Shown: piece after piece, positions 11,011 to 32,381 of the stretch | Numbering within the stretch: the first letter of the stretch is position 1 | Layout of the letters: every line of letters starts with the position of its first letter | Virus record (IMG/VR): IMGVR_UViG_3300035123_000008 | Location: 5,583-69,582 of that record | From: a virus | DNA length: 64,000 nucleotides | Strand: one strand, 5' to 3' | Position numbers and translations under genes: made by a program | Notes under the pieces: model-generated | Database searches by the model: none | What the model saw: the letters and a program-made list of their open reading frames with translations, nothing else | What the model was told of the DNA's origin: nothing

Positions 11011-13076
11011 CAGATAAGCCGATCAATAAAATGTTGAAACGGGAGCTTCAAGCATTAGTCAGGCGTCAGAGAAAGGAAATACAAAATCTAAGTAAACAGC
11101 CACGCTTCGAGACGGATGCAGAGCAAGCTTTCGGGAGTATCATGCGATGGGTAAAGATGGCTGATATTGAAGCCCCTAATTATCAAACAGACAGCAGAGC
11201 AAGAGACACATGGTTATATAAGTTCTGGCAGCGAGAACCTCATCTCGCTGGTGTTGTTAATGGGGTTGTTGCTATTGACAAGAATCGTGGTTGGACCCTC
11301 ACCGGAGGAAGAAATCAGGTTCGGCGTTACGTGGATATTTTACATAGCGCAGAGGGCGGTCGAGGCTGGAGGACCTATTTTGGCAAAAGTGCTTTTTCCT
11401 ACTATTGCACCGATGTTGGATCAGTCACCGAGGTTGGGAGGGATGGGCAGCAAGGACCCCTGCGAGCGATCTACAATGTCGATTCTGCAAGGTGTAGAAT
11501 GTCGGGCAATATTGAATATCCTCTTTACTACACTCCCCGAGGTGGTAAGCAACAGGAATGGACTGACTTTGACTTCTTTCGTGTAACCTCAATGGAAAGT
11601 ACCAATGAGCAATTTAATGGACTTGGTTTCTCTGCGATTTCAAGGGCGTTAGAGTTAGCCAAAATCATGGTTGCGATCTGGCAGCATGACCAAGAAAAGC
11701 TAGGTGCGAGAGCTTCCCGAGGTCTGCTGCTTTTGCATAACGTAAGCGAAGAGCAGTGGGAAAATGCTATGATCGCTCGTGATGCGAAGCTCGATAGTGA
11801 GGAGCATAAATACTATGGGGCGGTTTCTGTACTCGCGAGTTCAGGACAAGAACAGCTAGATGCGAAGCTAATAGCTCTTTCGGAGTTGCCGGATAACTTT
11901 GACCAGCAAACAGCGGTTGATCTTACGATGTATGGCTATGCTCTATGCTTTGGTTATGACCCTGCCGAGTTCTGGCCTGTCAAGTATGGCTCAATGGGTC
12001 GCGGTAGAGAAACCGAAGTGCAACACATAAAGGCAACTGGTAAGGGTGGGTTGGATCACGTTCTTAGCTGGCAAGAGCAATTGCAGGAGGAGTTACCTGA
12101 TTCCTTGCAATTTGACTTTGAGCATCGAGACGAGGCTGGAGAAATGCTGACAGCATCGGTTATGCAAGCAAAGATTGAAGCAATAGCGCAAGCATACGAA
12201 ACTGGTCTTATGTCAGGTATGCCATTGATTACGCGGGAAGAAGCAAGGTCGCTTTTAGCAGAGCAGGGTGTTATCCCTTACGAATGGACGGAGATCGAGG
12301 AGGACGTAGAGGTTGATGCTACCGAGGACCCCGAAGCAAGCGACAGCGAAAAGGAACCAACAGAAGAACCAACACCCGAACCCGAAGGAGAGGAAGCAAG
12401 GAGACGCGACGAGCTTCTCTCCAATTTCAGAGTGTTGCGCGCTTGCGAGAAATTTAGAAGTGAACCCATTGTACGCTACCAGTTCCCAAGTAATAAATTC
12501 ACTGTTCTCTTTGAGAGTGGGGATGCTGCGCTCAGACCAAGGTTGCATACTGTAGCGAAGATAAAGAAGCGCCAGGACGATAGCGAAGTTCTTTATACGG
12601 ATGCAGATGTAACCATTACAGAGCTTGATGTTGAGCGCGCAATCAAGGAAGCCGAAAAACGTATAGGTCCTGAGGCTGCGGAGCTTATGCGAGCGGAGGA
12701 AATGACACCGGAGGAACTCGCCGAGGCATATCCCGAAGGTAGAAGTTTATTGCAAAGGGCAAGGAAATTATTTGCTCGACAAATTACTGAGGAACCTTTA
12801 ACGACAGATGAAAAATTAGCAGCAAGAGATTTGCACATTCACTATCACAATGACGCTCTCCCAATAGAACGGCAGGACGAGAAAGAGGAAACGCAAATAA
12901 CCCCAGAGCAAGTTGTAGTCAACGTACCAGAGACACCAGTGGACGTAAATCTCGAAGCAACCTTTTACCTTAAGGAACCAGATCAGGTCATCGAAACGGA
13001 GACCTTTGTCGAGCGTGAGCCACACGACCGGAGAATAATGAGAACAACTTCGGTGAGTAAAAAGAAAAAGAAGTGA
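11007..13076 (+). CDS. Portal protein with long acidic C-terminal extension
   Basis: Directly follows TerL (ATGA overlap, GAGGAG SD); size and position fit; family not verified. Confidence 0.7.
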   Translation: MTDKPINKMLKRELQALVRRQRKEIQNLSKQPRFETDAEQAFGSIMRWVKMADIEAPNYQTDSRARDTWLYKFWQREPHLAGVVNGVVAIDKNRGWTLTGGRNQVRRYVDILHSAEGGRGWRTYFGKSAFSYYCTDVGSVTEVGRDGQQGPLRAIYNVDSARCRMSGNIEYPLYYTPRGGKQQEWTDFDFFRVTSMESTNEQFNGLGFSAISRALELAKIMVAIWQHDQEKLGARASRGLLLLHNVSEEQWENAMIARDAKLDSEEHKYYGAVSVLASSGQEQLDAKLIALSELPDNFDQQTAVDLTMYGYALCFGYDPAEFWPVKYGSMGRGRETEVQHIKATGKGGLDHVLSWQEQLQEELPDSLQFDFEHRDEAGEMLTASVMQAKIEAIAQAYETGLMSGMPLITREEARSLLAEQGVIPYEWTEIEEDVEVDATEDPEASDSEKEPTEEPTPEPEGEEARRRDELLSNFRVLRACEKFRSEPIVRYQFPSNKFTVLFESGDAALRPRLHTVAKIKKRQDDSEVLYTDADVTITELDVERAIKEAEKRIGPEAAELMRAEEMTPEELAEAYPEGRSLLQRARKLFARQITEEPLTTDEKLAARDLHIHYHNDALPIERQDEKEETQITPEQVVVNVPETPVDVNLEATFYLKEPDQVIETETFVEREPHDRRIMRTTSVSKKKKK

Positions 13077-15450: not shown

Positions 15451-15459
15451 GAGGCAGAA

Positions 15460-19362: not shown

Positions 19363-19380
19363 AAACGGGAGAAAAGGAAA

Positions 19381-19665
19381 ATGGCAAAACAACTTACGAT
19401 TGAGGACTTTCAAAACCTTGGTTATCTGCAGGAGCTTAATCGAACATTCCTGCACCCATTGGGTCTGTCTTTGGGGATTAGCATCGATGACAAAGGCGAG
19501 AAGCAGCTTTACGCAATCTTCGACCACCGAGATGAGAAGTCGGGACCAGTTTTCAAGGCTGGACAACTAAGCCAAGAGAAAGTCGATTTCGTTGAAGCGC
19601 AGCGAAAGGAACGTAATCAGGTGCGCTTGAACCAATACGGTTTCGACATTCAACCTGTGGAATGA
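19381..19665 (+). CDS. Hypothetical protein
   Basis: AAGGA SD; GYLQELNRTFLHPLGLSL. Confidence 0.7.
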   Translation: MAKQLTIEDFQNLGYLQELNRTFLHPLGLSLGISIDDKGEKQLYAIFDHRDEKSGPVFKAGQLSQEKVDFVEAQRKERNQVRLNQYGFDIQPVE

Positions 19666-20009
19666 CAATGGATCACAAAGTCTTTAAATTAGGCATGACT
19701 TCGGATAATGTTGTATTCATCGTCAATCACACACGGAGAGATTATGTCCATTCAACGAAAATCATCGGAATCGAAGATAACGGGTTGCTCGTCCAGTATT
19801 ACTTGCAAGATGCAACACTCACATTTGCTCGAAGAGATGGAGAATATCGAATCATCAAAGTCGAATCCCCCATCACAAAAGAGCAATATGACGAGATCGA
19901 GGAAGCGGATGTGCAGCCCTATTTAGATGCGCATTTTGGCAGCGTAAGGTATGACGAGGTTGCCCATCATGGCAAAGCTGACAGCAAAAAAACTGGCAGA
20001 GAAATATAA
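19662..20009 (+). CDS. Hypothetical protein
   Basis: ATGA overlap. Confidence 0.65.
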   Translation: MTMDHKVFKLGMTSDNVVFIVNHTRRDYVHSTKIIGIEDNGLLVQYYLQDATLTFARRDGEYRIIKVESPITKEQYDEIEEADVQPYLDAHFGSVRYDEVAHHGKADSKKTGREI

Positions 20010-21231
20010 TCTCCTAACAGTTGGGGAGGTAAAAGCTCTTCAATCAGTTGGACAATTCTTACCTAAAAGTCCAGTGATCGTGAATGTCGGTGCTGGTAAA
20101 GGTACAAGCGCATTGGCTTTCTTAGAGGCTTATCCAGACGCTTGGTTGACTACGGTTGATCGGAATAGGAAAGCGCTCGATGGCGAATATGCCTATCTGT
20201 TTGCAAGTGGATTAAACCTAGAAAGATACACGTCCATCAGAAACGACAGCATCAAAGCAGCTAGAAATTGGGAGCGTAAAAATATAGACGTTCTGCTGCT
20301 TGATGGTGCGCATAACTATGAATATGTTCGTGAGGAAATAGAGCTTTGGTCGAAGTTCGTGGTCGATGGAGGTTTTATTTTCATTCACGATTATGGAGTT
20401 GGTCATCCAGTATGGCAGCAGGTTAAACAGGCTGTTGACGAGTGGAGAGAACAGGAACAGATCGACCTCTACAAACGGGAGCGCATAATGGTCGCTGTTC
20501 GCATTCCTTCTTGGGGAAGGGACTTGAAGCGTCATGAAGTCCAGCATTATGTTAACCTGCTCCATACTGGTAAACCGTTTGGGCTTGCGCGCTACGGCGA
20601 CGGAGAGTGGCGCTGCATTTTGGGTGAGATTGGTGGCAAGAACTCCAATGGGTGTACTTTCACTGAGGAGATATGCGATGCCTTGAGAAAGGTGTTGCAT
20701 AAGAACTCGTCTTATGAACACGCTGTCTTGAGAATTGCGCGGGACAAGTTGGGGAAACGCATTGGTAACTTTCTTAGCTTGAATGGGATCAAGGTTGAAT
20801 GGACGATAGGTAACACCTTCTTAGACGAATCGTTCAAGGGTAAACTGTGGCCATTGATCGCAGCATTGAGAAAAAGGAAAATCGTTTACGTAGGACCTGA
20901 GTACTTGCGACCCATCAAAGACATATTTTTCAAGTATGTTGCTTATGTCGAAATCCCCCCGATTGACGCTTACAAAGAGCAAGGCAGAATCATTCCCGAA
21001 ATGCTACATGCAGTAGAACAGCATGAAGCGAACTTGGTTGGTTTCTCGGCAGGTCATCACAAACACCTTTTTGCAGAAGCACTCTGGAAGCACTTTAATG
21101 AGCAGGTTTCCTTTATTGACTTTGGTTGTATTTGGGATGGATACCTTGGTAAGAAATCTCGCAAGTTTCTACGCAAAGGACAATATGACTGGAAGGAACT
21201 ACAGCGGTTGAATGTGAGAAGGAAGCTATGA
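19969..21231 (+). CDS. Class I SAM methyltransferase (Methyltransf_24-like) fused to a GT-D-fold glycosyltransferase
   Basis: VNVGAGKG...LLDGAHNYEYV...FIHDY, then FGLARYGDGE...FIDFGCIWD. Confidence 0.8.
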   Translation: MAKLTAKKLAEKYNLLTVGEVKALQSVGQFLPKSPVIVNVGAGKGTSALAFLEAYPDAWLTTVDRNRKALDGEYAYLFASGLNLERYTSIRNDSIKAARNWERKNIDVLLLDGAHNYEYVREEIELWSKFVVDGGFIFIHDYGVGHPVWQQVKQAVDEWREQEQIDLYKRERIMVAVRIPSWGRDLKRHEVQHYVNLLHTGKPFGLARYGDGEWRCILGEIGGKNSNGCTFTEEICDALRKVLHKNSSYEHAVLRIARDKLGKRIGNFLSLNGIKVEWTIGNTFLDESFKGKLWPLIAALRKRKIVYVGPEYLRPIKDIFFKYVAYVEIPPIDAYKEQGRIIPEMLHAVEQHEANLVGFSAGHHKHLFAEALWKHFNEQVSFIDFGCIWDGYLGKKSRKFLRKGQYDWKELQRLNVRRKL

Positions 21232-21497
21232 CGGAAAAAGAAATCATAAAGAAATTATGGTCGCGCAGTTTCTACTTAGATGTAATTAAGGGGAATCCTC
21301 CGGAAGATGCAGTCAGGCTTGCTTTAGAAGGATTGTTTCTACATATGGCAAGGGAAGTTAAAAATACAGATATAAGTAGTGCTCAATGGTATCCGATGGA
21401 CTTCCCAATGAGACTAACTTTATCAAGCGAACAAGTATTCTGGGATTTTCGACTATCCATGAAGCTAGAAATAGAAGAACACAATGACGGAGAATAA
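21228..21497 (+). CDS. Hypothetical protein
   Basis: ATGA overlap. Confidence 0.6.
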   Translation: MTEKEIIKKLWSRSFYLDVIKGNPPEDAVRLALEGLFLHMAREVKNTDISSAQWYPMDFPMRLTLSSEQVFWDFRLSMKLEIEEHNDGE

Positions 21498-22230
21498 GCG
21501 AGTATGGGGCAGCAAGCTCAAGCGGTTTCCACTTACTTATTACGTGGATATGCTCAGACGAGATGCTCCCTTTGGGTTCGCACGTTATGGCGATGGGGAG
21601 TGGCTAACGATCCTTGGGGATTACGGCAATAAGAATTCTAACGGTTGCACTTTCACGCCTCAATTGGGCGATGCTTTAAGGAAGGTGTTGCATAACAACA
21701 ATAACTATGAACACTCTATTCTCAAGATAGCGCGGCGAAAGTTGGGAGATCGCATTGGTCCATTCTTGGAGGAAGGGAAGTACATGCTGGAATGGACAAT
21801 TGGCGATACCTTTTTAGAGCGATCATTGAAAGGGAAGATATGGCCATTGGTTGCGCAGCTTCGCCAGAAAAGGATAGTCTATGTCGGTCCAGAACATCTC
21901 AGAGCTTTGGGGAAAACTTTCTTTAAAATACAAGAATACGTGCAAATCCCGCCGAGAGATGCTATTACAAAACGGGCAACTATTGTACCTGCCATTCTGC
22001 GAGCGATCTCGAATACCAACGCTCAACTGGTGGGTTTTTCTAGCGGATTACATTCAAAGGTCTTCATCGACGATATATGGATGGAAACCGGAGGAATGAT
22101 AACGCTGATCGATTTTGGCAGTATGTGGGATGGGTACTTTGACGTTCCATCACGCTCTTACATAAGGAAAGGAAAGCACGATTGGGGCAAGCTGCAACAG
22201 GACAACACAAGAGGCAGACGCCTAAAATAA
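21484..22230 (+). CDS. GT-D-fold (DUF1792-like) glycosyltransferase, paralog of the preceding fused domain
   Basis: FGFARYGDGE...LIDFGSMWD. Confidence 0.8.
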   Translation: MTENKRVWGSKLKRFPLTYYVDMLRRDAPFGFARYGDGEWLTILGDYGNKNSNGCTFTPQLGDALRKVLHNNNNYEHSILKIARRKLGDRIGPFLEEGKYMLEWTIGDTFLERSLKGKIWPLVAQLRQKRIVYVGPEHLRALGKTFFKIQEYVQIPPRDAITKRATIVPAILRAISNTNAQLVGFSSGLHSKVFIDDIWMETGGMITLIDFGSMWDGYFDVPSRSYIRKGKHDWGKLQQDNTRGRRLK

Positions 22231-22895
22231 TCAACCCGTATGACCTATATTCAGAGGATATTTACGTGCGAGAAAAAATAGCTTTAGAGCCAATCTTAGG
22301 GGTCATAGAGAAACCTATCATCTTTGAATTGGGTGCGCACTTTGGTATCTCGACAGGGAGAATCAAAACCCTTGCACCGAACTCAATCTATTATGCCTTT
22401 GAGCCGGATATTCGCAACCTGAAAATTCTTTGGAGCCTCTATACATCAAACCATGTAAACATAATTTCAAAAGCTGTGGGTAAGGTTGATGGCAAGGTGA
22501 AATTCTGGCAATCTGGAGGCACGAATAAATCTGGGAGGTTGCATACCGATTCTTCATCCATTAAGAAACCCGTTGCCCATGAGAAAATGTTCCCTTGGAT
22601 GACCTTTCAGGAAACCGAAGTAGAGTGCGTAAGGTTGGACACATTTTGCGCTGCGAAGGGTGTAACCCACATTGACCTTATTTGGTCGGATGTACAGGGT
22701 GCAGAACTTGATGTAATCGAAGGTGGACAGGAAACCTTCAAGCGAACACGCTGGTTTTATACCGAGCACATGAACAATCCAAGGTATGAAGGACAACCCA
22801 ACTTGGGGCAGATCATCGAAGCACTTCCCGGGAACTGGAGAATTGATACAAAGTGGGAGATGGATGCTCTGCTGGAGAATGTAGACTATGCTTGA
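22182..22895 (+). CDS. FkbM family methyltransferase
   Basis: IFELGAHFG...YAFEPD...CVRLDTF...IDLIWSDVQGAELDVIEG; start uncertain. Confidence 0.9.
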   Translation: MGQAATGQHKRQTPKIINPYDLYSEDIYVREKIALEPILGVIEKPIIFELGAHFGISTGRIKTLAPNSIYYAFEPDIRNLKILWSLYTSNHVNIISKAVGKVDGKVKFWQSGGTNKSGRLHTDSSSIKKPVAHEKMFPWMTFQETEVECVRLDTFCAAKGVTHIDLIWSDVQGAELDVIEGGQETFKRTRWFYTEHMNNPRYEGQPNLGQIIEALPGNWRIDTKWEMDALLENVDYA

Positions 22896-23454
22896 TTCAT
22901 ACACGATAGGCGAGAAATTCCCAATGCTGGTAAAGGCAGAGATAGACCTGTTAAAAGAATGCGTCAATGAGCTTTTGCCCGATCCGGTTATTGTTCAAAT
23001 AGGTGCTGGTGTCGGTGCGAGCTCACTGGCTATGCTTGAGGAAAGGGATGATCTCTTTATCTTCTCGATTGATATTGAGTTTCCAAAAACTGGCATCTAT
23101 AAGCCGGGGGAAAAAGAAAACCTGATGTTAGCAGGTCATTGGGATGGTCGATTGATTCAGGTGCTTGGCAGTAGTCAATACGTTGGGCAACGTTGGAGGT
23201 TCCCAATCGATTTACTTTTTATTGACGGTGATCACAGGTACGAATATGTAAAGCAGGATATAGAGCTTTTCGTTCCTCATGTTATGGAAGGTGGTTATAT
23301 TCTCTTTCATGACTATGCTGAGAAGCTAAAGAAACCCAAGGCCGGCGTTAAGAAAGCAGTCGATGAATTGCTTGGACACTATGAAGTTGTCGGACAAAGG
23401 AAGTGGCTATGGGCGATAATGAAGCCTTTTACGTTGCATGGAACCACGGAATAA
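22888..23454 (+). CDS. Class I SAM methyltransferase (Methyltransf_24-like)
   Basis: VQIGAGVG...FIDGDHRYEYV...GGYILFHDY. Confidence 0.85.
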   Translation: MLDSYTIGEKFPMLVKAEIDLLKECVNELLPDPVIVQIGAGVGASSLAMLEERDDLFIFSIDIEFPKTGIYKPGEKENLMLAGHWDGRLIQVLGSSQYVGQRWRFPIDLLFIDGDHRYEYVKQDIELFVPHVMEGGYILFHDYAEKLKKPKAGVKKAVDELLGHYEVVGQRKWLWAIMKPFTLHGTTE

Positions 23455-24059
23455 AAGAAGCTGTCAATAGCTGCAAGTCATTGAAAGAACACAACCCTGA
23501 TCTTCGGGTATCTCTTGCTTGCTTTGAGCCTATTGAGATTGATTGTTTTGACCATGTTTTTAGTTTTGCTGAGCGAGAGTTTTCAGAGAATAAATTCTTA
23601 CGAAAAGTGGAGTTGATCTACGAGTTTCTTATACGATCAGAAGCGCAGCGCGTTCTGTTTCTGGATACCGACACAACAATATTCGGGAGCGTTCAACCTA
23701 TTTTTGATTCTCTGGATTATGCGCAGTTGGCAATGGCATTAGCTCCAGTCGCTATGAGAAACGAGGGGGTTCCCGATTCAATTGCAACATATAACACAGG
23801 CGTGATGGGTGTTTATTGTTTATATGAAACTGTCATCCGTCAATGGCTGGAAGCAACAAGACATAACGATGACGATCAACACGCTATGCGCTGGCTAATT
23901 CATAACGCAGGACTTAAAATCGCCACGCTTTTACCAAGGTACAACTTTCGACCGAAGTTCCCAGCTTACTTAAGCGGGAAACCTGTCATCATTCACAATC
24001 GGCAAGGAGACAATAAGAAGATTTTTAAGAGAGCAAACAAGGGGCATTGGAAGCCGTAA
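23403..24059 (+). CDS. GT-A fold glycosyltransferase (GT8/GT77-like)
   Basis: VLFLDTDT (DxD), YNTGVM, DDQHAM, YNFR...IIH. Confidence 0.75.
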   Translation: MAMGDNEAFYVAWNHGIKEAVNSCKSLKEHNPDLRVSLACFEPIEIDCFDHVFSFAEREFSENKFLRKVELIYEFLIRSEAQRVLFLDTDTTIFGSVQPIFDSLDYAQLAMALAPVAMRNEGVPDSIATYNTGVMGVYCLYETVIRQWLEATRHNDDDQHAMRWLIHNAGLKIATLLPRYNFRPKFPAYLSGKPVIIHNRQGDNKKIFKRANKGHWKP

Positions 24060-24070
24060 AGGAGCTTGAA

Positions 24071-24745
24071 ATGAATAAAGAATTTGGACGCTTATATTCT
24101 GTAGACGAGAGGGATCAAAACTACCTGATCTCCGCGCTCTCAGCCGTTGCAGAACCGGAGATAACAAGGACATACCGTTATTGGTGGGCTGATGGGCATT
24201 GGGGAGATCAAGGTGCTACGCCCCAATGTGTTGCCTATGCTTGGTTGCACTTCATGGAGGATGGACCCGTCACATGGGAACCTCGCTCACCCGGAAGCGG
24301 TTTTATCTTTGAACCCGAGGACCTATACAGCCAAGCGCAGCAAGTGGACGAATGGCCGGGAGAAGGATATGCCGGGACAAGCGTTCGAGCAGGCGCAAAA
24401 ATCATGCGACAATGGGGCATTATAAGTGAATACCGTTGGGCGTGGGATTTGCAAGGTTTGATTGATGCTGTGCTACATGCTGGTCCTGTCGTGGTGGGAA
24501 CCAATTGGTACGAGCGTATGATGAACCCGAATGCCGATGGTTACATTGTTCCCAAAGGCGCTCTCCTTGGTGGGCATGCTTATGTTATCAACGGTGTCAA
24601 TCTCAATAGACGCATTTTCAGGCTCAAGAACAGTTGGGGCAGGGAGTGGGGCGATAGCGGTCATGCTCTCCTGCGATACAAACACATGGAAAAGCTGATA
24701 AACGAGCAGGGCGAAGTTTGCTTGGCGGTGGAAGCACAGACATGA
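24071..24745 (+). CDS. Papain-like (C1) cysteine peptidase
   Basis: DQGATPQC (Gln/Cys), GGHAY (His), KNSWG (Asn); AAGGAG SD before ATG 24071. Confidence 0.9.
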   Translation: MNKEFGRLYSVDERDQNYLISALSAVAEPEITRTYRYWWADGHWGDQGATPQCVAYAWLHFMEDGPVTWEPRSPGSGFIFEPEDLYSQAQQVDEWPGEGYAGTSVRAGAKIMRQWGIISEYRWAWDLQGLIDAVLHAGPVVVGTNWYERMMNPNADGYIVPKGALLGGHAYVINGVNLNRRIFRLKNSWGREWGDSGHALLRYKHMEKLINEQGEVCLAVEAQT

Positions 24746-25488
24746 TCCGTGAGACGATCTTCGTTGCAGGTTATCCCAAAAGTGGGAACACTTGGTTGAC
24801 ACGCTTGTTAGCCGATGTTCTGGATTCGCCATCAGGTGGTTGTCGCCCAATAGATGATGACGCCGAGGTTGCAACGGAGGGGCAGGATCGAGAGGGCAAG
24901 TACATTGTTCGCAAAGGACATTTTCGACCCGTAGAAAACAATGAAGGTCCCATTGTGCCTAAAGAACACAAATTGGCATGGAAGAGGATAACCACGCAGA
25001 AGGTTGTCTTGATCTACCGTGACCCTCGGGATGTACTTGTGTCGGGTGCGCACTATTGGAGACGAGATCAGGCAGAACATTGGGATATGATTCGAACAGG
25101 GCATGGCTCAATGCGCTTGCATGGTCCTTGGGACTGGTACATGGACGAATGGTTGCGCTTTGAGGGCGAACCGTGGTTTGTGAAAGTGAGCTACGAGAGC
25201 TTGCTGAAGAATACCTACTATGCAATCTGCTACGTGCTATCAAAGCTGAGGATTGACATACCAGTTTACTCGCATGTCGAAAGCGCAATCCAGCGTCAAT
25301 CCTTCGAGGAGAAAAAGAAAGCGTTGGTAAAGAAACCGCACAACCCGAAATACAACAGCAAGTTTCACAGGCACTTCATGCGCAAAGGGCAAGCAGGGTC
25401 ATGGAAAGATGAACTTAATCCTATATTAGCAATGGCGGTTGTGGAGATGTTTGGTGACACGATGCGAAGGTTGGGATATGTTAGCTAA
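24742..25488 (+). CDS. PAPS-dependent sulfotransferase (Sulfotransfer_1-like)
   Basis: GYPKSGNTW (5'-PSB loop), YRDPRDVLVS (3'-PB), FMRKGQAGSWK. Confidence 0.9.
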   Translation: MIRETIFVAGYPKSGNTWLTRLLADVLDSPSGGCRPIDDDAEVATEGQDREGKYIVRKGHFRPVENNEGPIVPKEHKLAWKRITTQKVVLIYRDPRDVLVSGAHYWRRDQAEHWDMIRTGHGSMRLHGPWDWYMDEWLRFEGEPWFVKVSYESLLKNTYYAICYVLSKLRIDIPVYSHVESAIQRQSFEEKKKALVKKPHNPKYNSKFHRHFMRKGQAGSWKDELNPILAMAVVEMFGDTMRRLGYVS

Positions 25489-26194
25489 TCTACCTATCTG
25501 TGTCTTAACCTGTGATGAATACCTGTGGATGCTGCGACCTTTTGCCTTCCTGTTCAATACCTTTTGGGATGAGGAGCAGGAGGTACGCATTTATGGCTAT
25601 AAGCCAAACTACAAAATCATCAATGATCTACCAAGTAATTTTGCTTTCTATTCTCTCGATCGGAACTGCTATCCTGCAGATCGTTGGAGTGACGGACTGA
25701 TACAGCTTATTCGCTTATTGAAGGTCGAGCACTTCATACTTTTTTTAGAGGATTTCTGGCTTTATGACAACGTTTGTCTCAATCAGATAAATTCTTTGGT
25801 TGGTTACACATTCCTGAATAAAGATGTGCTGCGAATGGATTTGACCAATGAGCGCATTTCAAAAAAGAGTGCGCAAATAATAGAGCATTTCGATGGTATT
25901 GGAATCGTAGACGCCGGCTTACCATCTAAGTACTCGATGAGTTTTCAGGTCGGGATCTGGAACAGCGAACTTGCTCTCAAGGTGTTACGAGAGGGTGAGA
26001 CACCTTGGAAAGCGGAGATTGATGGAACGAAACGGGTGAACGCAATGAAAGGAGAACTACGGGTGCTTGGAACTGACAAGCGACCTGTGCGCTATCAACC
26101 TGTTTACCGGAATCATAAACGTCAATTAAGGATTAACAAAATACCAACACATCTAATGAATGTAATTATGAAACGGGGCTGGTTGGACGGATAA
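25478..26194 (+). CDS. Putative GT-A fold glycosyltransferase
   Basis: ICVLTCD...FILFLEDFW...SFQVGIWN...TPWKAE. Confidence 0.6.
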   Translation: MLANLPICVLTCDEYLWMLRPFAFLFNTFWDEEQEVRIYGYKPNYKIINDLPSNFAFYSLDRNCYPADRWSDGLIQLIRLLKVEHFILFLEDFWLYDNVCLNQINSLVGYTFLNKDVLRMDLTNERISKKSAQIIEHFDGIGIVDAGLPSKYSMSFQVGIWNSELALKVLREGETPWKAEIDGTKRVNAMKGELRVLGTDKRPVRYQPVYRNHKRQLRINKIPTHLMNVIMKRGWLDG

Positions 26195-26203
26195 GGGGAA
26201 AAG

Positions 26204-26830
26204 ATGACTTGGAAGTGGGATCCGATTGCGGGTCGTTACTGGAATTCGGAAACAAAGAAACATATTGGTCGAACTAAAGCCCTTGAATATGTAGAAATGT
26301 CAGCCACGGCTACAGGGTTAGCTACGGATGATCTGGCTCTTTTACTATCTGATGAAATTATTGGTGCTGCCGAATGGCGAATAGCAATGAGAGAATCCGT
26401 TAAGCGAGAATATATTAGGCAGTATCTTTTAGGTCGTGGTGGTTTGGAACAGATGACGTATGCCGATTGGGGGAGTATCGGCGGTATGCTTGCAGAGCAA
26501 TATGGTCACCTTGATAATTTTACAGCCGTATTGGGTGATCTCTCTGAAGCTCAGATCATGGCTCGAAGTAAGATGTACATTAATAGTGGGCGTGAAGCCT
26601 ATGAAAGAGCACATGCAAGGGTTGCTATTGGTTTGGGATTTGATGAGGAAGCTTGGGTGATAGATCCATTAGCCTTAAATTGTGATGATTGTTTGGCTTA
26701 TTACGAAGAGGGCTGGAAACCTATTGACCACTTTCCTTTTCCCGGTCAAGGATGGACGGTTTGCCTTACGAATTGTAAATGCCATAAAGAGTATAGAAAC
26801 TCTCAAACTGAGGAGGTATGGGAAGGGTGA
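26204..26830 (+). CDS. Head morphogenesis / minor capsid protein (Mu gpF / SPP1 gp7-like)
   Basis: C-terminal CDDC...PFPG...CLTNCKC; lies before the scaffold and MCP genes. Confidence 0.65.
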   Translation: MTWKWDPIAGRYWNSETKKHIGRTKALEYVEMSATATGLATDDLALLLSDEIIGAAEWRIAMRESVKREYIRQYLLGRGGLEQMTYADWGSIGGMLAEQYGHLDNFTAVLGDLSEAQIMARSKMYINSGREAYERAHARVAIGLGFDEEAWVIDPLALNCDDCLAYYEEGWKPIDHFPFPGQGWTVCLTNCKCHKEYRNSQTEEVWEG

Positions 26831-27042
26831 GTGGTGTGAAACAAGATTGCGCTGGTAACACCATTTCTATATCGCAGAACAGCAAAATTGTTCGTGTCGA
26901 TGGCATTCCCATTTGTAAAAGGGTGATAAGGAAAGATGGTGTCTACTTGCAATTTGCAGATCGAGATAAGCAACGTAGTGGAATACGAGGAACGAGATAT
27001 GTGGAGGTGCGCTTGGACAGTTGGATAAACAAGATCGCTTGA
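26818..27042 (+). CDS. Small hypothetical protein
   Basis: GAGGAGG SD. Confidence 0.6.
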   Translation: MGRVSGVKQDCAGNTISISQNSKIVRVDGIPICKRVIRKDGVYLQFADRDKQRSGIRGTRYVEVRLDSWINKIA

Positions 27043-27068
27043 CATTAATAGCCAACGTCCTGTAAGAT
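27039..27068 (+). promoter_or_regulatory. Sigma70-like promoter upstream of the head operon
   Basis: TTGACA-18 nt-TAAGAT. Confidence 0.55.
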
Positions 27069-27110
27069 GTGGGCGATGGCGTATTGAAGGCTGTAGGTGC
27101 TTGACGCCAG

Positions 27111-27151
27111 AAGCCGACTGGAAAAATCGACTCCAGTGGGCTTTTCTTTTT
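27111..27151 (+). terminator. Terminator-like hairpin in the head-operon leader
   Basis: AAGCC-G-ACTGGA / TCCAGT-G-GGCTT followed by TTCTTTTT, directly before AGGAGG. Confidence 0.55.
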
Positions 27152-27162
27152 AGGAGGAAGAT

Positions 27163-28797
27163 ATGCCATATAGTGGACCAGACGACCCTGATCTCCCAGA
27201 AAACGTCCAAGACTTATCGCAGGACAAAAGGGAACAGTGGGTTGCAATTTTTAACTCATCCTTCGAGCGTTGTCAGGAGGAAGGGTTGAGCGAAGTTGCA
27301 GATGACCCCTCCCAATTCGATAGCTGTGAAGCCTTCGCATTTGCCAACGCCAACGGTGTCGTATTGGAGAAGGAGGAGCGAATGGAAAAACCTAGATGGA
27401 TGCAAGCATGGGAACAATTGCGCGACCTGATTCTTGAGTTCCCCAAGAGCATTACAGAGTTGCGTGCCCTCAGTGGTGAATCGCTTTTCAATCAACTGTG
27501 GGATGGTCTGCTTGAGCGCGGTGACTGGATTTGGGTCAACGATATTTATTGGGACGATGATGGCAGCACCTTTGCCATAGTTTCCAGTGAAGGCAAATTG
27601 TATCGGGTCAACTTTACCATTGATGGTAATGAAGTCCGTGTCTCCGATGATTGGCAAGAAGTAGAGCCAGAGTTTAAACCTCTTTCAAGAACTACAACCA
27701 AAATCATAAGGCAGAAGGATGGTCGTGTGCGGTGGCTTTCCATTTCCAACACGGCGGTTCTCAACCGTTCCGGAGAGCTTGATGCACGTGAGCTATTTGA
27801 TAGCTTTATCCAACATGCACAGGAAACAGGTGAGCATCCATATCGAACTTTTTACCATCAGGGGAAAGAGATGAAAACGGGTGACACCGATTTCATGGCT
27901 CGTGATGGATACTGCTACATCACCAGCGGTTTGTATGAAGAGGACAATCCTCTCGCAGAGCATGAAATAAAAGCATTGGAGCGAGAGCCGGAGTATTGGG
28001 GAGAAAGCATTGGATTTGAAGTCTCAGACTTTGAAAATATGGAGGTGGCAGAGGGAGTAACGATACCAGTTTTCACAAAAGGAATTCACAGAGAAACATC
28101 AACATTACCGAGCGACCGTGCTTGCGCTTTGTTTACAAGGACGTTCGCAACGAAGGAGGTTGCACGAATGAAACCAGATGTTAAGGAGGCACTCACACGC
28201 TTAACCGATGGCGACGAGGAATTGATCGAACAGTTTGACGAGGTGTTGAATGAAACCAACCGAACCATTGAAGAGGAGAATCTTGTCAGGCGAGAGGAAG
28301 AGGTTGAACCAGAAGCCGAAGCTGAACCAGTGGAAGAGGAAGTCGAAGCTGAAGAGGAAGAGGCTGAAGAGGAAGCTGAACCCGTTGCCGAGGTTGAGGA
28401 AGAGGAGCCAGAAGTTGTAGAGCAAGCGTTTCCTGAGATCGGAGAGCTGGAGCTTGACGATGAAGTTGTGGAGCGTATTGCTGAAACTGCTTTGCAGTCC
28501 GAGCATATCATCTCGGAGTTTGAATTGCGGGATGGAGACATTGCAGAGCTAAAGAAAGGCATCGAGGAGTTACAGGCAATCGTTCGTGGGTTGCAAGACC
28601 TACCGAAGCGTGTCACTGCGCTTGAGTTGTCCGATGATGAAAAGCGTCAAGTTTGGTTGGAGGATCAACCCAAGAAAGCGGAAAAGATAACTGTGACCTA
28701 TCGTCCTCGCGAGGATCCCGAGAAGGAATCAGAGGAAGAAGAGTCGATGGCTTCGAAGGCAGAGGATACGTTGGAAAAGATGCCAACGTACAAGTAA
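27163..28797 (+). CDS. ChaB-like domain + putative prohead protease (XkdF-like) + acidic scaffold
   Basis: MPYSGPDDPDLPENVQ...QWVAIFNS (ChaB-like); WLSISNTAVLNRSGE...FYHQG core; Glu-rich coiled C-terminus; directly upstream of MCP. Confidence 0.7.
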   Translation: MPYSGPDDPDLPENVQDLSQDKREQWVAIFNSSFERCQEEGLSEVADDPSQFDSCEAFAFANANGVVLEKEERMEKPRWMQAWEQLRDLILEFPKSITELRALSGESLFNQLWDGLLERGDWIWVNDIYWDDDGSTFAIVSSEGKLYRVNFTIDGNEVRVSDDWQEVEPEFKPLSRTTTKIIRQKDGRVRWLSISNTAVLNRSGELDARELFDSFIQHAQETGEHPYRTFYHQGKEMKTGDTDFMARDGYCYITSGLYEEDNPLAEHEIKALEREPEYWGESIGFEVSDFENMEVAEGVTIPVFTKGIHRETSTLPSDRACALFTRTFATKEVARMKPDVKEALTRLTDGDEELIEQFDEVLNETNRTIEEENLVRREEEVEPEAEAEPVEEEVEAEEEEAEEEAEPVAEVEEEEPEVVEQAFPEIGELELDDEVVERIAETALQSEHIISEFELRDGDIAELKKGIEELQAIVRGLQDLPKRVTALELSDDEKRQVWLEDQPKKAEKITVTYRPREDPEKESEEEESMASKAEDTLEKMPTYK

Positions 28798-28834
28798 ACC
28801 TTGCCCTAGTTAGTATTATTCAGGAGGAAAAAAC

Positions 28835-30154
28835 ATGACACAAGGTGTTGATATAAGAGAACGACAGAGCGATATGAGTATCAGTTCGTTGGCGACAATC
28901 TATGGTTGTTGTGGGTTGTTCGATCTTTGTGGAGATGCAGATTTAATCTCTCTGTCAATGGAGGGTGCTGATCCATTTCTAGACTGGATTGGTTGGGTTC
29001 CAACGTTAGATTGTATCGTCAAGAGACACTTCATTGCTTGGAATCGCCCGGAATATTCTGCTGGCTCTCCAACCGCGGGTTATCTGGCTGATCCATGCGC
29101 CGACCCCAACTCGGTAGAGTGGGGCGTGTGTGATTTCACGCTGGAAGATTTCGCTCGTCTGCGACGTGAAGGACCTGTGCGGGACGTAACCTACAACGCA
29201 GTCAATTACTGCCAGTCCCAACCGCGCTATCGCCTTGATGGAACGCTGATCGATGATGACCGAGAGTACGATGCTCGTGTGATCTCCGAGGTTCTGCTGC
29301 AAGACCTGCGTCGAATGTTCGTAACTGGTTCAGGTGCGGCTGGAACCTTTGCAGGGCTCGAGCAGCTTGTGAACACAGGCTATACCAATTCAGATGGCAC
29401 ACCCTGCCGTTTGATGGATAGTATGGTCATCGACTGGAACAGCAACGGCATGAATGGGGGCGCGGGAGCGACCTTCAATGGTGCTGGTATTGCTGCTGGC
29501 TACAACTTTGTCGATGTGCTGCTTGACATCTATCGCCGGATGCGAACACGGCTCTCTTGGTCACCTACGCTTGCCTCTCAGCCTCTGAGTACTGGAGATG
29601 TTGTGTTGGTAATGCCGACACATATGGTTCGATGCTTGCTGGATGCGTATACCTGCTGGAGCGTTTGTGATGGGCAGGAATACAACGAAGTTGCAATCCA
29701 GTCGTATGAAGCTCGAACCTTCAGGACCCAGTTGAATGGTGGCATGTTTGGCAGTGGTCGTATCTTCCTCGATGGGTTTGAAGTTCCCCTGATCGCGTAC
29801 GATTGGGAACTCATCAAGGGACCAACCCTTTCAGACATCTATATGCTGGTTGGAAATGTTGGAAGCGTAAAGACGCTCATGGGTGAGTTCGATGATATGC
29901 GGGCTGTTACGTCAAGCTTCCCAGAAGCTGGCTATTTCGTAACTGATGGTGGTCGCTTCTTGGGTTGGCTGGATCGTGATGAAACCTGCTACACCCAGAC
30001 ATTAGAGTTTCGACCGAGGCTTGTGTCATGGGCGCCATGGTTGAATGCTAGGTTCCAGAATGTGCGTTGCGAAACCCCAACTGGACCTCTCTCACCAGAC
30101 CCAACGGCAACGAGCTTCTTCCCAGAGACCTCGTTCGATATTGCGGAATGCTGA
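28835..30154 (+). CDS. Major capsid protein
   Basis: Follows the scaffold gene with AGGAGG SD; 439 aa; followed by a hairpin; assigned by synteny. Confidence 0.75.
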   Translation: MTQGVDIRERQSDMSISSLATIYGCCGLFDLCGDADLISLSMEGADPFLDWIGWVPTLDCIVKRHFIAWNRPEYSAGSPTAGYLADPCADPNSVEWGVCDFTLEDFARLRREGPVRDVTYNAVNYCQSQPRYRLDGTLIDDDREYDARVISEVLLQDLRRMFVTGSGAAGTFAGLEQLVNTGYTNSDGTPCRLMDSMVIDWNSNGMNGGAGATFNGAGIAAGYNFVDVLLDIYRRMRTRLSWSPTLASQPLSTGDVVLVMPTHMVRCLLDAYTCWSVCDGQEYNEVAIQSYEARTFRTQLNGGMFGSGRIFLDGFEVPLIAYDWELIKGPTLSDIYMLVGNVGSVKTLMGEFDDMRAVTSSFPEAGYFVTDGGRFLGWLDRDETCYTQTLEFRPRLVSWAPWLNARFQNVRCETPTGPLSPDPTATSFFPETSFDIAEC

Positions 30155-30177
30155 TCGTATTTCCTTCTGTGAATTTG

Positions 30178-30205: not shown

Positions 30206-30226
30206 TACATCTAAACGGGAGTCAGC

Positions 30227-32080
30227 ATGGAAAATCTTACGGTCGTTATTCCGTTTTTCAACGGGCATGAAACTATTGGTAGGTTACTCGATAGCCTACC
30301 AGCGGAGTTATCGGTCATTGTCGTAGATGACTTGAGCGATGAACCGTTGCACCTTAACAATCGAAACGTGACAGTGTTAGCTTTGCTGGAAAAGGGCTAT
30401 TTCGCTGGAGCGGTCAATACGGGGTTAGCAGCTTGCGACACCGATGTACTGGTTCTCAACCAAGACGTTGCCTTTACTGATGGACGCTGGCTTGATTTTA
30501 TCGAAAAGAATCGTGGTCGGTATGCCGTCATAGGGGATGGTGTCTTTGGTCACCCTGCTTGGGAAAAGGGTTATGTGCAAGGGACCTTCATGTTCATGCG
30601 CCGAGATGCGATCAATGAAGTTGGCTATCTCGACACTGAGAATTATCCATTGTGGGGTTGTACTGCCGAGTGGCAGCTGCGCGCTTGTCGATACGATTAC
30701 GAAGCACTCCCTGTAAAACCTGTTCCAGGCATGTACCACGAAAGGGATGCGTATGGAGGCAAGAGCTATGGATCCTCCATCACAACCATATTGGAGCGCG
30801 AGCCTGATAAGAGAGGCTATTTCATAAGAACGCCTCCTATGATCTCCGTGGTTGTACCTTGCTTCAATCATGGTCGCTATTTGCAGGACCTTGTCAATTC
30901 CCTGCTCGGTGGTAAAACGCCCCTTGGTGAGTTTCCCCCTCAATCCTTCCAGTCCTTTGAGATCATTTTGGTTGATGATGCAAGCTCGGATGACACTTGG
31001 GAATACATGCAAGAGCTTGTCGATCCGTGGAAGGGCATACGGGCATACCAACACAAGGTCAACAGTGGAACCGCTGCCGCGAACAACACAGGTGCGAAGC
31101 GCGCATATGGAAAGTTTCTCACCTTTATTAGCGCAGATGACATGATGGAACCGGATCGCCTTGAGCGACTTTACAAAGCATCGCTCAAGCATGAAGGGAA
31201 AGTGATCTACGATGATATGTTTGTGTTTACACGTGACAAGCGATCCAAAGCGTGGGCGATGCGCAACTATGATTTTGAATTGCTGCTCACGAAAAATCAC
31301 ATGCACGCCGGAATCTTCTTTCCGAGAAAAGCATGGGAGGAAGTAGGTGGTTATCCCGAGCTAATGAACAAAGGGCGTGAGGATTGGGCTTTCAATGTGC
31401 GCCTTGGTATTCATGGCTGGTGTGGCCACCATTTGAGCAATTATGCAGGATACCTTTATCGCAGGGAGGGGCAGAACAGAACGCTAACCAACACAAACCC
31501 TGTCTGGCGATCTATTTTTCTAAACCAGATGGTTTCCTTATTTGGAAACATCTATGCAGGAGAGCGACCTATGGGATGCTGTGGTGGTAGACGAAGAAAC
31601 CAACCCAAGACGATTAAAAGAAGGAGGTCACCAATGGCATTGCCGGGGAGTGAAGGCATGGTCCTGATCGAGTACCTTGAAGGCAAGCATGGGATCATGA
31701 GCTTTTATGGACCTGTGACAGGAACCCGTTACACCTTTGGAGGTAGCAGGAAGGTGAGCTACGTTGACGCCGAAGATGCAGCGGAAATGGTTGGTATGGT
31801 CAAGAACCGTAAATCCGTTTTCAGGTACTTCGAAGCCAAGAAGAAAAAGAAAGTGGAAGTGCGCAAGGTTGCAGCTAAAGACGAAGCTCCTGAAGCTGTG
31901 CCGGTGGACGATGTGCCGGTCTTTGATCCGGGAGCGATGAGCATTTCCGAGCTAACCAAGGCACTCGAAGGTATCAGCAACGTTGGGATACTGGAAGAAG
32001 TGCATAAGCAGGAGCAAGTGGGGAAAGCTAGAGTTGGGGCGTTGAGGGCGATCAATGCTGCAATTAAAGATGCTCGCTAA
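30227..32080 (+). CDS. Tandem GT2-GT2 glycosyltransferase with C-terminal non-GT domain
   Basis: VVIPFFNG...VVDDLS...LNQD and VVVPCFNH...LVDDASSD...ISADD...EDW; C-terminal MGCCGG.../MALPGSEG... segment. Confidence 0.85.
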   Translation: MENLTVVIPFFNGHETIGRLLDSLPAELSVIVVDDLSDEPLHLNNRNVTVLALLEKGYFAGAVNTGLAACDTDVLVLNQDVAFTDGRWLDFIEKNRGRYAVIGDGVFGHPAWEKGYVQGTFMFMRRDAINEVGYLDTENYPLWGCTAEWQLRACRYDYEALPVKPVPGMYHERDAYGGKSYGSSITTILEREPDKRGYFIRTPPMISVVVPCFNHGRYLQDLVNSLLGGKTPLGEFPPQSFQSFEIILVDDASSDDTWEYMQELVDPWKGIRAYQHKVNSGTAAANNTGAKRAYGKFLTFISADDMMEPDRLERLYKASLKHEGKVIYDDMFVFTRDKRSKAWAMRNYDFELLLTKNHMHAGIFFPRKAWEEVGGYPELMNKGREDWAFNVRLGIHGWCGHHLSNYAGYLYRREGQNRTLTNTNPVWRSIFLNQMVSLFGNIYAGERPMGCCGGRRRNQPKTIKRRRSPMALPGSEGMVLIEYLEGKHGIMSFYGPVTGTRYTFGGSRKVSYVDAEDAAEMVGMVKNRKSVFRYFEAKKKKKVEVRKVAAKDEAPEAVPVDDVPVFDPGAMSISELTKALEGISNVGILEEVHKQEQVGKARVGALRAINAAIKDAR

Positions 32081-32381
32081 ACTGATAGTCGCAGGTTTTG
32101 CATGCTACAGATTGGCTCAACTTGTGGTCTATGATGACGGTCCGTTTCGATTGTTTGACAAGCTGCGCATTGTCGCAGGGTGCTATGACTACGGGGAGGA
32201 CGGTCAGCCACAGAGCGAACTAGGGCGACTTTTAAGCTGTCCTTACTGCGTAGGTATTTGGATAGCTCTACCGTTAGCCCTTGTCCCCCCATGTCAGACA
32301 GTTATTGAGTTTGTGGTTGCTTGGTTTGCAATAGCTGGACTTCAAGCGTTACTTGAACAGCTTTGCAACGGGAGAGAGTAA
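32055..32381 (+). CDS. DUF1360-like membrane protein
   Basis: ACYRLAQLVVYDDGPF...LLSCPYCVGIW. Confidence 0.75.
   Translation: MLQLKMLAKLIVAGFACYRLAQLVVYDDGPFRLFDKLRIVAGCYDYGEDGQPQSELGRLLSCPYCVGIWIALPLALVPPCQTVIEFVVAWFAIAGLQALLEQLCNGRE

Follow-up and report, generated by a model that had tools for sequence, protein, structure and literature searches.

An uncultured 71-kb phage from a wetland carries an enzyme island inside its head-assembly genes, and this island is most likely a cytoplasmic phage pathway that attaches glycans to proteins of the phage's own particle while the head is assembled, a reading to which we give somewhat better than even chances. The analysis covered one 64,000-nt stretch of the genome (the window). 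Between the portal gene and the scaffold and capsid genes, positions 19951-26194 encode two GT-D glycosyltransferases, a GT8-like enzyme, a GT-A enzyme of an unnamed family, three SAM methyltransferases, a sulfotransferase and a papain-like peptidase. A first-pass annotation had proposed four glycosyltransferase domains, three methyltransferases (including FkbM), a sulfotransferase and a C1 peptidase, and all of them were recovered where it had placed them by Pfam, PHROG, structure models and profiles. The enzyme folds and catalytic motifs are those of glycan building and tailoring; which protein is the acceptor, which sugars are used and that a sugar is sulfated are inferred. The genes and intervals of the region are as follows:

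9625..11010, + strand: large terminase, given as context (Pfam Terminase_3 6.7e-8, Terminase_6N 5.3e-7)
10986..13076, + strand: portal protein, upstream border of the island site (Atlas neighbours, clade conservation)
19381..19665, + strand: small conserved gene of 94 aa ahead of the island (phrog_3954, unknown function, 1e-6)
19951..21231, + strand: fusion of Methyltransf_24 (N-terminal) and GT-D glycosyltransferase (C-terminal) (Pfam, paralogy to 21484-22230)
21228..21497, + strand: 89-aa gene of unknown function overlapping both neighbours, with neither a Pfam nor a PHROG match
21484..22230, + strand: predicted GT-D-fold glycosyltransferase (AlphaFold2 model and Foldseek)
22182..22895, + strand: FkbM-family SAM methyltransferase (Methyltransf_21 5.5e-21, 75.9 bits against a cutoff of 22.7)
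22888..23454, + strand: second Methyltransf_24 SAM methyltransferase (6.2e-14)
23403..24059, + strand: GT8-like (retaining GT-A) glycosyltransferase (profile against PDB, invariant DxD)
24047..24745, + strand: papain-like cysteine peptidase (phrog_16701 2e-61; Peptidase_C1 6.2e-5)
24718..25488, + strand: PAPS-type (cytosolic SULT-like) sulfotransferase (Sulfotransfer_1 3.4e-24, 86 bits against a cutoff of 22)
25439..26194, + strand: GT-A-fold glycosyltransferase of an unnamed family (structure model and Foldseek)
26204..26830, + strand: conserved head-module gene of 208 aa closing the island (phrog_24776, unknown function, 4.4e-36)
26831..27162, no strand: intergenic gap of 332 nt, probable transcription-unit boundary and insertion hot spot
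27163..28797, + strand: acidic scaffold or scaffold-protease protein (26% Asp plus Glu)
28835..30154, + strand: major capsid protein, HK97 fold (Atlas structure matches)
30227..32080, + strand: double GT2 glycosyltransferase, GT2-GT2 (Glycos_transf_2 1.3e-37, two stretches)
32055..32381, + strand: DUF1360 membrane protein after GT2-GT2 (PF07098 1.5e-10)

The two GT-D copies are paralogous, with 53% identity between the C-terminal half of 19951-21231 and 21484-22230, and both are sub-threshold in Pfam (E about 0.1). The AlphaFold2 model of 21484..22230 (pLDDT 95.5, pTM 0.92) confirmed the predicted GT-D fold: the only significant PDB matches in Foldseek were the three solved DUF1792 structures, 4phr, 4pfx and 5v4a (probability 1.0, E about 1e-7, ranging from 1e-7 to 7e-7), and the next match had an E of 0.03. 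The family-invariant R-x-G-D-G-E motif (DXE-type) aligned to RFGDGE of Mn-bound 4phr, so the metal-site motif is found in both, and 15 of 38 members of the family matched PF22882 GT-D-like. The DUF1792 GT-D enzyme of streptococcal serine-rich-repeat adhesin glycosylation is soluble and extends a protein O-glycan in the cytoplasm. Unlike it, the copies here are phage-encoded, one being fused to a methyltransferase, and the window protein is 15-18% identical to the solved structures and lies below Pfam thresholds. The fusion gene likely starts at the ATG at 19969, which has GAGG 9 nt upstream, and the fusion recurs in relatives P0004-P0006, P0010, P0012, P0014 and L007.

The GT8-like protein scored below the Pfam threshold (Nucleotid_trans 0.009, GT8 0.045). 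When a profile of seven homologues was compared with the PDB, the matches were GT8 chains only (5gvv at 6.2e-5, glycogenin, LgtC), and D88 and D90 (the DxD) as well as H198 were invariant. The best match, 5gvv, bears the title 'Glycosyl transferase family 8', and its enzyme presumably acts on a serine-rich surface protein. For 25439..26194, Pfam returned nothing, nor did it for 38 homologues, and the family has 1011 representatives at E<=1e-3. Its model (pLDDT 94.1) matched GT6 ABO transferases, GnT-I and POMGnT1 in Foldseek (probability 1.0, E about 1e-6, TM 0.39-0.56), which are matches of the GT6/GT13 type. Since the homologues begin at residue 16-20, the true start is probably downstream of 25439. 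As the first-pass annotation had noted, a GT2-GT2 gene directly follows the capsid gene, beginning 72 nt downstream.

In the N-terminal half of 19951..21231, Pfam found Methyltransf_24 at 7.8e-15, with weak secondary matches to TylF and CmcI, which we take to be sugar O-methyltransferases. The second Methyltransf_24 protein is 36% identical to this half, and relatives encode its homologues, often in two copies. The FkbM enzyme was also found in relatives L006, L008, L085 and L087. The PKSGNTW, RDPRD-x3-S and RKG-x2-G-x-WK motifs of the sulfotransferase aligned to solved SULTs and were retained in six clade homologues (37-43% identity), with one invariant His, H84, indicating an enzyme predicted to be intact and PAPS-type.

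Between 19381 and 26830, neighbouring genes overlap or are spaced by at most 9 nt. This tight packing, together with the nucleotide-sugar synthesis genes (FdtA, DegT, epimerase/dehydratase) that join the island in relatives, argues for one pathway. Eight related metagenomic phage contigs carry a variable island at the same site, six of them with a sulfotransferase; in all eight (L004, L005, L006, L007, L008, L010, L085 and L087), the first island gene, immediately downstream of the portal gene, encodes a GT-D enzyme. The fetched DNA extends to the scaffold gene in four of the eight (L006, L007, L008 and L085), and the scaffold is kept ahead of the capsid gene. Three of these four extend to the capsid gene and two, L006 and L085, to GT2-GT2, which is kept downstream of the capsid gene in both. 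Relative L088, whose capsid protein is the most similar one (58% identity), has no island; it retains only a GT2-GT2 remnant (residues 4-134) and carries a homologue of 26204..26830 directly after its portal gene. In the distant L058, GT-D and GT2 genes lie between capsid and tail genes. Because the island holds the same head-module site across the clade, a link to head assembly is suggested, and this survey bears out the earlier proposal of a multi-enzyme set for building and tailoring a glycan within the head module. All enzymes of the set are soluble.

The borders of the site were assigned from several sources. The terminase matched its L006 homologue at 1e-115. The portal gene lies immediately downstream and had no Pfam match, but 67 of its 100 nearest Atlas clusters were Phage_portal, structural matches to Atlas portal clusters reached a TM of 0.76, and conservation was 1e-102 to 3e-206 across all clade relatives, in which the portal gene likewise comes next after TerL. 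The capsid protein matched SU10_MCP, Phage_capsid and GP7 clusters (TM by target 0.71-0.80), and the scaffold weakly resembled S78 prohead protease clusters of the Atlas. In L007, the homologue of 19381..19665 (1e-20) sits between the portal gene and the fusion gene.

The first-pass annotation had considered all these enzymes coupled between portal and capsid. The location stands, but the island begins 6.9 kb after the portal gene, with the cassette 13399-19177 in between, and a probable transcription-unit boundary precedes the scaffold gene. This gap, the sole one above 72 nt within 19381-32381, separates the island and gene 26204..26830 from the scaffold and capsid genes. It holds the region's best + strand promoter-like site (TTGACA-18-TAAGAT, 27039-27068), and in L007 its place is taken by 4.3 kb of ORFs on the opposite strand. 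The timing of the island could thus differ from that of the capsid gene. Moreover, 3-53 kb of the window lies on a single strand throughout, DNA-modification genes included, so strand and position do not alone prove late expression. In two wetland metatranscriptome runs, the only genes with contigs on them were the scaffold and capsid genes, GT2-GT2, the probable major tail gene and the chaperone gene; the contigs start in the bin 26944-27607. The island itself had no RNA contigs, and none of the runs listed contained it; considering that the majority of the other structural genes were likewise undetected, this absence carries little weight either way. The detection of GT2-GT2 alongside scaffold and capsid supports virion glycosylation.

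GT2-GT2 also bears on another explanation, which we consider unlikely: that the enzymes remodel a host envelope glycopolymer or lipid-linked precursor (S-layer glycan, teichoic-acid-like polymer or O-antigen), whose effect would be a superinfection block or less sticking of progeny to debris. O-antigen conversion is the usual annotation of phage GT2 genes, and GT2-GT2 matched the GtrB-like phrog_841 (6e-15); the DUF1360 protein downstream, conserved in L085, has two to three hydrophobic segments; an integrase occurs in one relative; and soluble glycosyltransferases can act on lipid-linked host glycans too, which counts against glycosylation of the virion. However, no membrane segment was found in any island enzyme or in GT2-GT2, and no flippase-like gene, polymerase or polyprenyl-phosphate transferase was seen among the island enzymes, pointing to action in the cytoplasm. 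The island also lies within the head module rather than beside an integrase or repressor, at a site constant across the clade, and the RNA of GT2-GT2 together with the capsid gene is unlike lysogenic conversion.

Island content differs strongly among the relatives, and it is rather improbable, though conceivable, that the site is a hot spot of unrelated accessory genes with different targets (host proteins, small molecules, nucleotide sugars) and encodes no single pathway. At the same site, this phage has also gained the cassette 13399-19177, which is highly conserved and unrelated to the island, and the peptidase clearly belongs to an independent gene family. Its His and Asn-Ser-Trp-Gly regions aligned to cathepsin B and xylellain-type chains, and a QG-x4-C motif is at residues 55-61. 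It was found within the island of only one further relative among the eight, and no glycan genes adjoin its homologues in actinophages and XacN1; it is therefore probably an independent passenger gene outside the pathway, to which it had been assigned at first. Against a mere hot spot, the recurring core (GT-D, Methyltransf_24 and the unnamed GT-A in most relatives, FkbM and sulfotransferase in four to six) is entirely carbohydrate-directed, nucleotide-sugar synthesis genes join it, and the fusion gene physically couples two steps. It is very unlikely that the island elaborates a phage-DNA glycan (base hypermodification) by extending a sugar placed by an upstream TAGT-type transferase: TAGT (7.5e-51), radical SAM and ParB genes do precede the terminase and share its strand, the PHROG label for the Methyltransf_24 family is 'DNA methyltransferase', and L087 encodes a homologue of the unnamed GT-A with a fused dCMP/cytidine deaminase domain, a hint that the substrate may be related to nucleotides, but TAGT is absent from the fetched flanks (up to 10 kb) of island-bearing relatives, the island tracks head genes rather than replication genes, the solved GT-D and GT8 relatives presumably act on protein-linked or other glycans and not on DNA, and we know of no sulfated DNA glycan.

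If virion proteins are the target, one or more glycosyltransferases would start the glycan on Ser/Thr of a structural protein, the candidates being GT2-GT2, the GT8-like enzyme and the unnamed GT-A. Both GT-D enzymes would extend it, the three SAM methyltransferases would O-methylate its sugars, and the sulfotransferase would add sulfate from host PAPS. The first-choice acceptor candidate would be the Ser/Thr/Pro-rich C-terminal tail of the capsid protein, whose S/T/P density (13/30) is tied highest among the window proteins. With its two bounding Cys, this tail is conserved in L006, L085 and the island-less L088, and its retention in the latter means that it may be structural rather than an acceptor.

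Precedent for virion glycosylation comes from Corndog-type phages, the closest known system. [quoted passage not shown] According to two papers that cite Freeman et al. 2023 (PMC11600133, PMC12363180), capsid and tail tube proteins are modified by these enzymes. In both phages, the cassette follows the portal and precedes the protease/scaffold and capsid genes, and a SAM O-methyltransferase is combined with several soluble glycosyltransferases. The Corndog enzymes themselves went undetected in purified virions, as would be expected of catalysts. Corndog gp34-39 and gp41 showed no sequence similarity to window proteins (best E 0.016 to 0.99, on unrelated proteins), so the precedent is an analogy only. 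The island here is larger, with four glycosyltransferase domains, GT2-GT2 and three methyltransferases, and it has GT-D-fold enzymes and a sulfotransferase, neither of which is, to our knowledge, known from mycobacteriophage glycosylation systems. The host, which like the phage is uncultured, also seems to differ in not being an actinobacterium; the sole clue to it is two Chloroflexota MAG contigs. Giant viruses (chlorovirus PBCV-1, Mimivirus) decorate capsid proteins or fibrils with enzymes that they encode themselves, namely cytoplasmic glycosyltransferases, sugar methyltransferases and enzymes of nucleotide-sugar synthesis, but their hosts are eukaryotic and their capsids unrelated, and we know of no sulfation step in their capsid glycosylation.

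Considering that tailoring enzymes are exchanged among the relatives and that genes for nucleotide-sugar synthesis are added in them, the glycan structure would vary from phage to phage. A decorated virion glycan, if the reading is true, would extend to this phage what has so far been shown only in a few mycobacteriophages, with unrelated enzymes.

The source record comprises 71,158 bases in IMG/VR and is complete by CheckV, and the window covers its bases 5583–69582. Many wetland metagenome runs hold DNA nearly identical to that of the window. Deposited phage genomes gave no match, whether positions 19000–31000 were searched as nucleotides or the capsid, portal, GT-D, sulfotransferase, and unnamed GT-A products as proteins; therefore, no cultured relative could be used. 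The genes from the terminase to the end of the head module were arranged as follows.

Genes and intervals of the head module
9625–11010, + strand, large terminase (Pfam)
10986–13076, + strand, portal (no Pfam match; among the nearest 100 Atlas clusters, 67 are Phage_portal; structural matches reach TM 0.76)
13399–19177, + strand, cassette unrelated to the island
19381–19665, + strand, small conserved gene (phrog_3954)
19951–26194, + strand, island of glycosyltransferase, methyltransferase, sulfotransferase, and peptidase genes
26204–26830, + strand, 208-aa head-module gene (phrog_24776)
26831–27162, gap of 332 nt
27163–28797, + strand, acidic scaffold-like protein (26% Asp plus Glu)
28835–30154, + strand, major capsid protein (HK97-fold Atlas matches, TM by target 0.71–0.80)
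30227–32080, + strand, double GT2 glycosyltransferase, GT2-GT2 (Pfam)
32055–32381, + strand, DUF1360 membrane protein

The DUF1360 gene (32055–32381) overlaps the end of GT2-GT2 and encodes the only membrane protein of the head module; its place is kept in L085, a related metagenomic phage contig.

The first-pass annotation had listed in the island two GT-D domains, a GT8-like and a further GT-A glycosyltransferase, three methyltransferases, a sulfotransferase, and a C1 peptidase, and Pfam, predicted structures, and profile matches together confirmed this inventory. The three methyltransferases (two Methyltransf_24 and one FkbM), the sulfotransferase, and the peptidase were supported by Pfam directly, as was the GT2 pair of GT2-GT2. 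The Methyltransf_24 gene had only weak matches, to genes of cyanophages and a Thermobifida phage. The sulfotransferase scored 86 bits against PF00685 (cutoff 22), and its PKSGNTW, RDPRDVLVS, and RKGQAGSWK segments aligned with the 5'-phosphosulfate loop, the 3'-phosphate motif, and the C-terminal RKGxxGxWK of solved SULTs. Both PAPS-binding motifs and RKGxxGxWK were conserved in six clade homologues of 37–43% identity, in which H84, a few positions off the catalytic His of SULTs when aligned, was also invariant. An alignment search of IMG/VR with the sulfotransferase returned just two contigs, both already known, so it does not amount to a survey of such enzymes in phages.

The identity of the two GT-D domains, paralogues of 53% identity, had to be settled by fold, because the profile of the family reached DUF1792 in the PDB only at E 0.03. 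Against the Pfam GT-D models, the window proteins scored 11.8–12.1 bits, below the gathering threshold of 27 (E about 0.1), and PDB searches by sequence alone with 21484–22230 and the unnamed GT-A gene at 25439–26194 gave chance-level matches or none. We gathered 118 GT-D homologues and aligned 38, of which 15 matched PF22882 at E ≤ 0.01 (best 1.6e-7). The predicted structure (pLDDT 95.5, pTM 0.92) had as its only significant PDB matches the DUF1792 structures 4phr, 4pfx, and 5v4a (E 1.3e-7 to 7.3e-7, TM 0.53–0.60), the next match lying at E 0.028. R34, D37, G38, and E39, which include an Asp-x-Glu metal-binding motif, were invariant across the 38 members, and the profile aligned the family-invariant R-x-G-D-G-E (RyGDGE) with RFGDGE of 4phr/4pfx, a Mn-bound structure. 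The product of 21484–22230 is thus predicted to have the GT-D fold of DUF1792 (PF08759/PF22882). A single-protein search of IMG/VR found no match to the GT-D protein; an alignment-based search found the family in 78 loci. On phage-sized metagenomic contigs the family is common, whereas none was found in 50,697 deposited phage genomes.

The GT8-like gene (23403–24059) scored 13.8 bits against Pfam GT8, below the cutoff of 24.3. Six of its seven homologues matched that model at up to 0.0014, the D88-x-D90 (DxD) motif was invariant among them, and a C-terminal His was also kept. All 23 PDB matches of its profile were GT8-type chains, with 5gvv best at 6.2e-5 and glycogenin, LgtC, and Skp1 galactosyltransferase also found. 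Neither the unnamed GT-A protein (251 aa) nor its homologues matched Pfam; the family has 1011 representatives, and the structural model (pLDDT 94.1) has a GT-A fold matching GT6, GT13, and POMGnT1 enzymes.

To see how the island is kept, we compared related contigs. Portals within the closer clade match that of the window at 1e-102 to 3e-206, and eight distinct members carry the island (L004, L005, L006, which is the same contig as L009, L007, L008, L010, L085, and L087). The window phage comes from wetland, and the relatives come from marine and sediment samples. In all eight, the portal gene is followed within a few small genes by the GT-D gene (about 2.9 kb downstream in L010). A variable set then follows, drawn from Methyltransf_24 (often twice), FkbM, the unnamed GT-A, the GT8-like gene, and the sulfotransferase, the last being present in five relatives (L005, L007, L008, L085, and L087) and thus in six of the nine phages with the window. 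Beyond the island, where the contig extends, come the 208-aa gene, scaffold, capsid, GT2-GT2, and DUF1360, the 208-aa gene being detected only in L007 and L087 among these relatives. Even in the distant relative L058, GT-D and GT2 genes still lie between capsid and tail genes. The L005 island adds the nucleotide-sugar synthesis genes FdtA, DegT, and epimerase/dehydratase (11971–13540 and 18622–19524), and from its gene content this phage seems to make its own amino-deoxy nucleotide sugar. L087 adds an epimerase, likewise a nucleotide-sugar synthesis gene, and at 13301–14500 it joins a dCMP/cytidine-deaminase domain to an unnamed GT-A homologue (5e-55), so that some versions of the island may include a step that edits a nucleotide or nucleotide sugar.

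One contig has no island: L088, which is 13 kb long, is binned with an Ardenticatenia MAG, and encodes the capsid protein closest to that of the window (58% identity). Its gene order is terminase, portal, 208-aa gene, scaffold, and capsid, and of GT2-GT2 it keeps only a 199-aa remnant matching residues 4–134. This is one single instance of joint loss of the island and GT2-GT2. The only capsid matches in species-representative genomes were L088 and L089, the latter in a Chloroflexota MAG, both on short contigs; this binning is a weak hint that the host phylum is Chloroflexota.

Not every gene between portal and scaffold belongs to this conserved core. The peptidase (24047–24745) scored 23.6 bits against the Papain family (C1) model of Pfam (cutoff 20.7); its GGHA and NSWG regions aligned with cathepsin-type chains, and QG-x4-C lies at residues 55–61, so both the Gln/Cys and the His/Asn regions of papain are retained. 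We rejected it both as a prohead protease and as a pathway member, since in phage BillNye the homologue comes after the terminase, away from any glycan genes, and in XacN1 it lies among metabolic genes; as a pathway member it is further disfavored by its presence inside the island of only one clade relative, L007. Members of this family, phrog_16701, occur in phages of Streptomyces, Gordonia, Mycobacterium, and Prevotella and in jumbo phages of Xanthomonas/Stenotrophomonas, the BillNye copy lying just after the terminase.

The cassette at 13399–19177, between the portal and the island, consists of genes for 683, 66, 828, 145, and 221 aa and occupies that place in this phage only. Its 828-aa protein (15657–18143) had no Pfam or PHROG match and was absent from the clade relatives, and more than 120 cluster representatives share 64–76% identity with it over the full length, on contigs of 3–127 kb. 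The same neighbours accompany it in other phage head modules: in the phage contigs L094 and L095, a protein of about 580–710 aa precedes the 828-aa homologue, and genes of about 125 aa and about 190–224 aa follow, the unit lying directly after the portal gene in L094. The cassette has the look of a unit that travels from one phage head module to another and is conserved to an unusual degree. That the whole island is a mere hot spot of unrelated genes would fit the peptidase and this inserted cassette, but the coherent carbohydrate core speaks against it, as does the gene at 19951–21231, in which an N-terminal Methyltransf_24 domain is fused to a C-terminal GT-D domain, and we consider it improbable.

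From 19381 to 26830, genes overlap or lie at most 9 nt apart, and the 332-nt gap before the scaffold gene (26831–27162) is the one clear break. The region's best promoter-like site on the + strand (27039–27068) lies in this gap; promoter-like and terminator-like sites were no commoner than in shuffled controls, however, and they do not allow an operon map to be drawn. In L007, a 4.3-kb block of small opposite-strand ORFs (14782–19129) separates the 208-aa gene from the scaffold gene at exactly the position of the gap, indicating that the island is in a portal-side unit and not in the capsid unit. The gap looks like both a transcription boundary and an insertion hot spot.

Two wetland metatranscriptome runs contained parts of the phage. 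RNA contigs covered 26944–32255, that is, the scaffold, capsid, GT2-GT2, and the start of DUF1360, and otherwise only 42977–43739 and 44435–44792, on the probable major tail protein and the chaperone. As DNA runs cover every bin, this signal is not DNA carry-over. GT2-GT2 thus groups with the most abundant late messages. The island had no RNA contig, and no RNA run among the matches listed holds it. However, the portal, the tape measure, and most tail genes equally had none, so the absence is not evidence of silence and says no more than that the island lies outside the top expression class. Of the two genes with RNA contigs beyond the scaffold-capsid-GT2 stretch, the one at 42568–44046 encodes the probable major tail protein, whose 492 aa include BNR/Asp-box repeats, unusual for a protein of this kind; the other, at 44160–44684, encodes the tail chaperone.

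The recurring genes of the island are all carbohydrate-directed, soluble, and tied to the head module. On balance, we favour the reading that the structural proteins of the phage itself would be glycosylated in the cytoplasm and then O-methylated and sulfated. The capsid C-terminus (30070–30154), a conserved tail in which two invariant Cys enclose about 28 residues with much Ser, Thr, and Pro, is the first-choice candidate acceptor. L006, L085, and L088, relatives of 45–58% identity, keep it; as L088 does so without an island, its value as a marker is weakened, and the tail is not evidence of glycosylation in itself. A more specific proposal, which we advance only tentatively, is that this clade of uncultured phages coats its capsid, and perhaps its tail, with an O-methylated and sulfated heteroglycan that differs from phage to phage and would be made entirely by phage enzymes, the GT-D enzymes included.

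Remodelling of the host envelope is the strongest competitor, although a rather unlikely one. Phage GT2 genes are usually annotated in this way, and a DUF1360 membrane protein follows GT2-GT2. However, no hydrophobic segment was found in any island enzyme or in GT2-GT2, the island has no membrane or export component, and its head-module position argues against an envelope target. Elaboration of a glycan on the phage DNA, which would suit the TAGT, radical SAM, and ParB genes ahead of the terminase and the deaminase–GT-A fusion of L087, is very unlikely, as relatives carry the island with no TAGT in its flanks.

To our knowledge, phage-encoded virion glycosylation is documented only in a few mycobacteriophages, where antibody recognition is weakened. 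In cluster O mycobacteriophages, one O-methyltransferase gene and three glycosyltransferase genes lie between those for the portal and the protease (PMC4351075). PMC11600133 and PMC12363180, citing Freeman et al. 2023, report that these enzymes modify capsid and tail tube proteins, and PMC12619734 also cites the content of that study. Head-module cassettes for particle glycosylation are thus already known in phages. Like gp35–38 of the cluster O phage Corndog, the island places methyltransferase and glycosyltransferase genes between the portal and the protease or scaffold and capsid genes. However, the enzymes share no homology: phmmer gave no match, and BLASTP gave only chance-level matches on unrelated proteins. 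Given this lack of similarity between Corndog and window proteins, the island represents an independent solution outside the Corndog family. As far as we found, the literature holds no description of GT-D-fold enzymes, the unnamed GT-A family, or a sulfotransferase in such a cassette.

The GT-D family, the unnamed GT-A family with its more than 1000 representatives, and the compact sulfotransferase are candidates for glyco-engineering. If the heteroglycan proposal is true, it would be, as far as we know, the first sulfated glycan on virus particles made by virus-encoded enzymes. A charged coat, methylated and sulfated, could alter the adsorption, aggregation, protease resistance, and mucus or mineral binding of the particles. 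The presence of the island throughout a clade from wetland, marine, and sediment samples suggests that such a trait is widespread. If a second enzyme set, unrelated to the first and much richer, occupies the same site in the head module, particle glycosylation would have arisen more than once and would be common outside actinophages.
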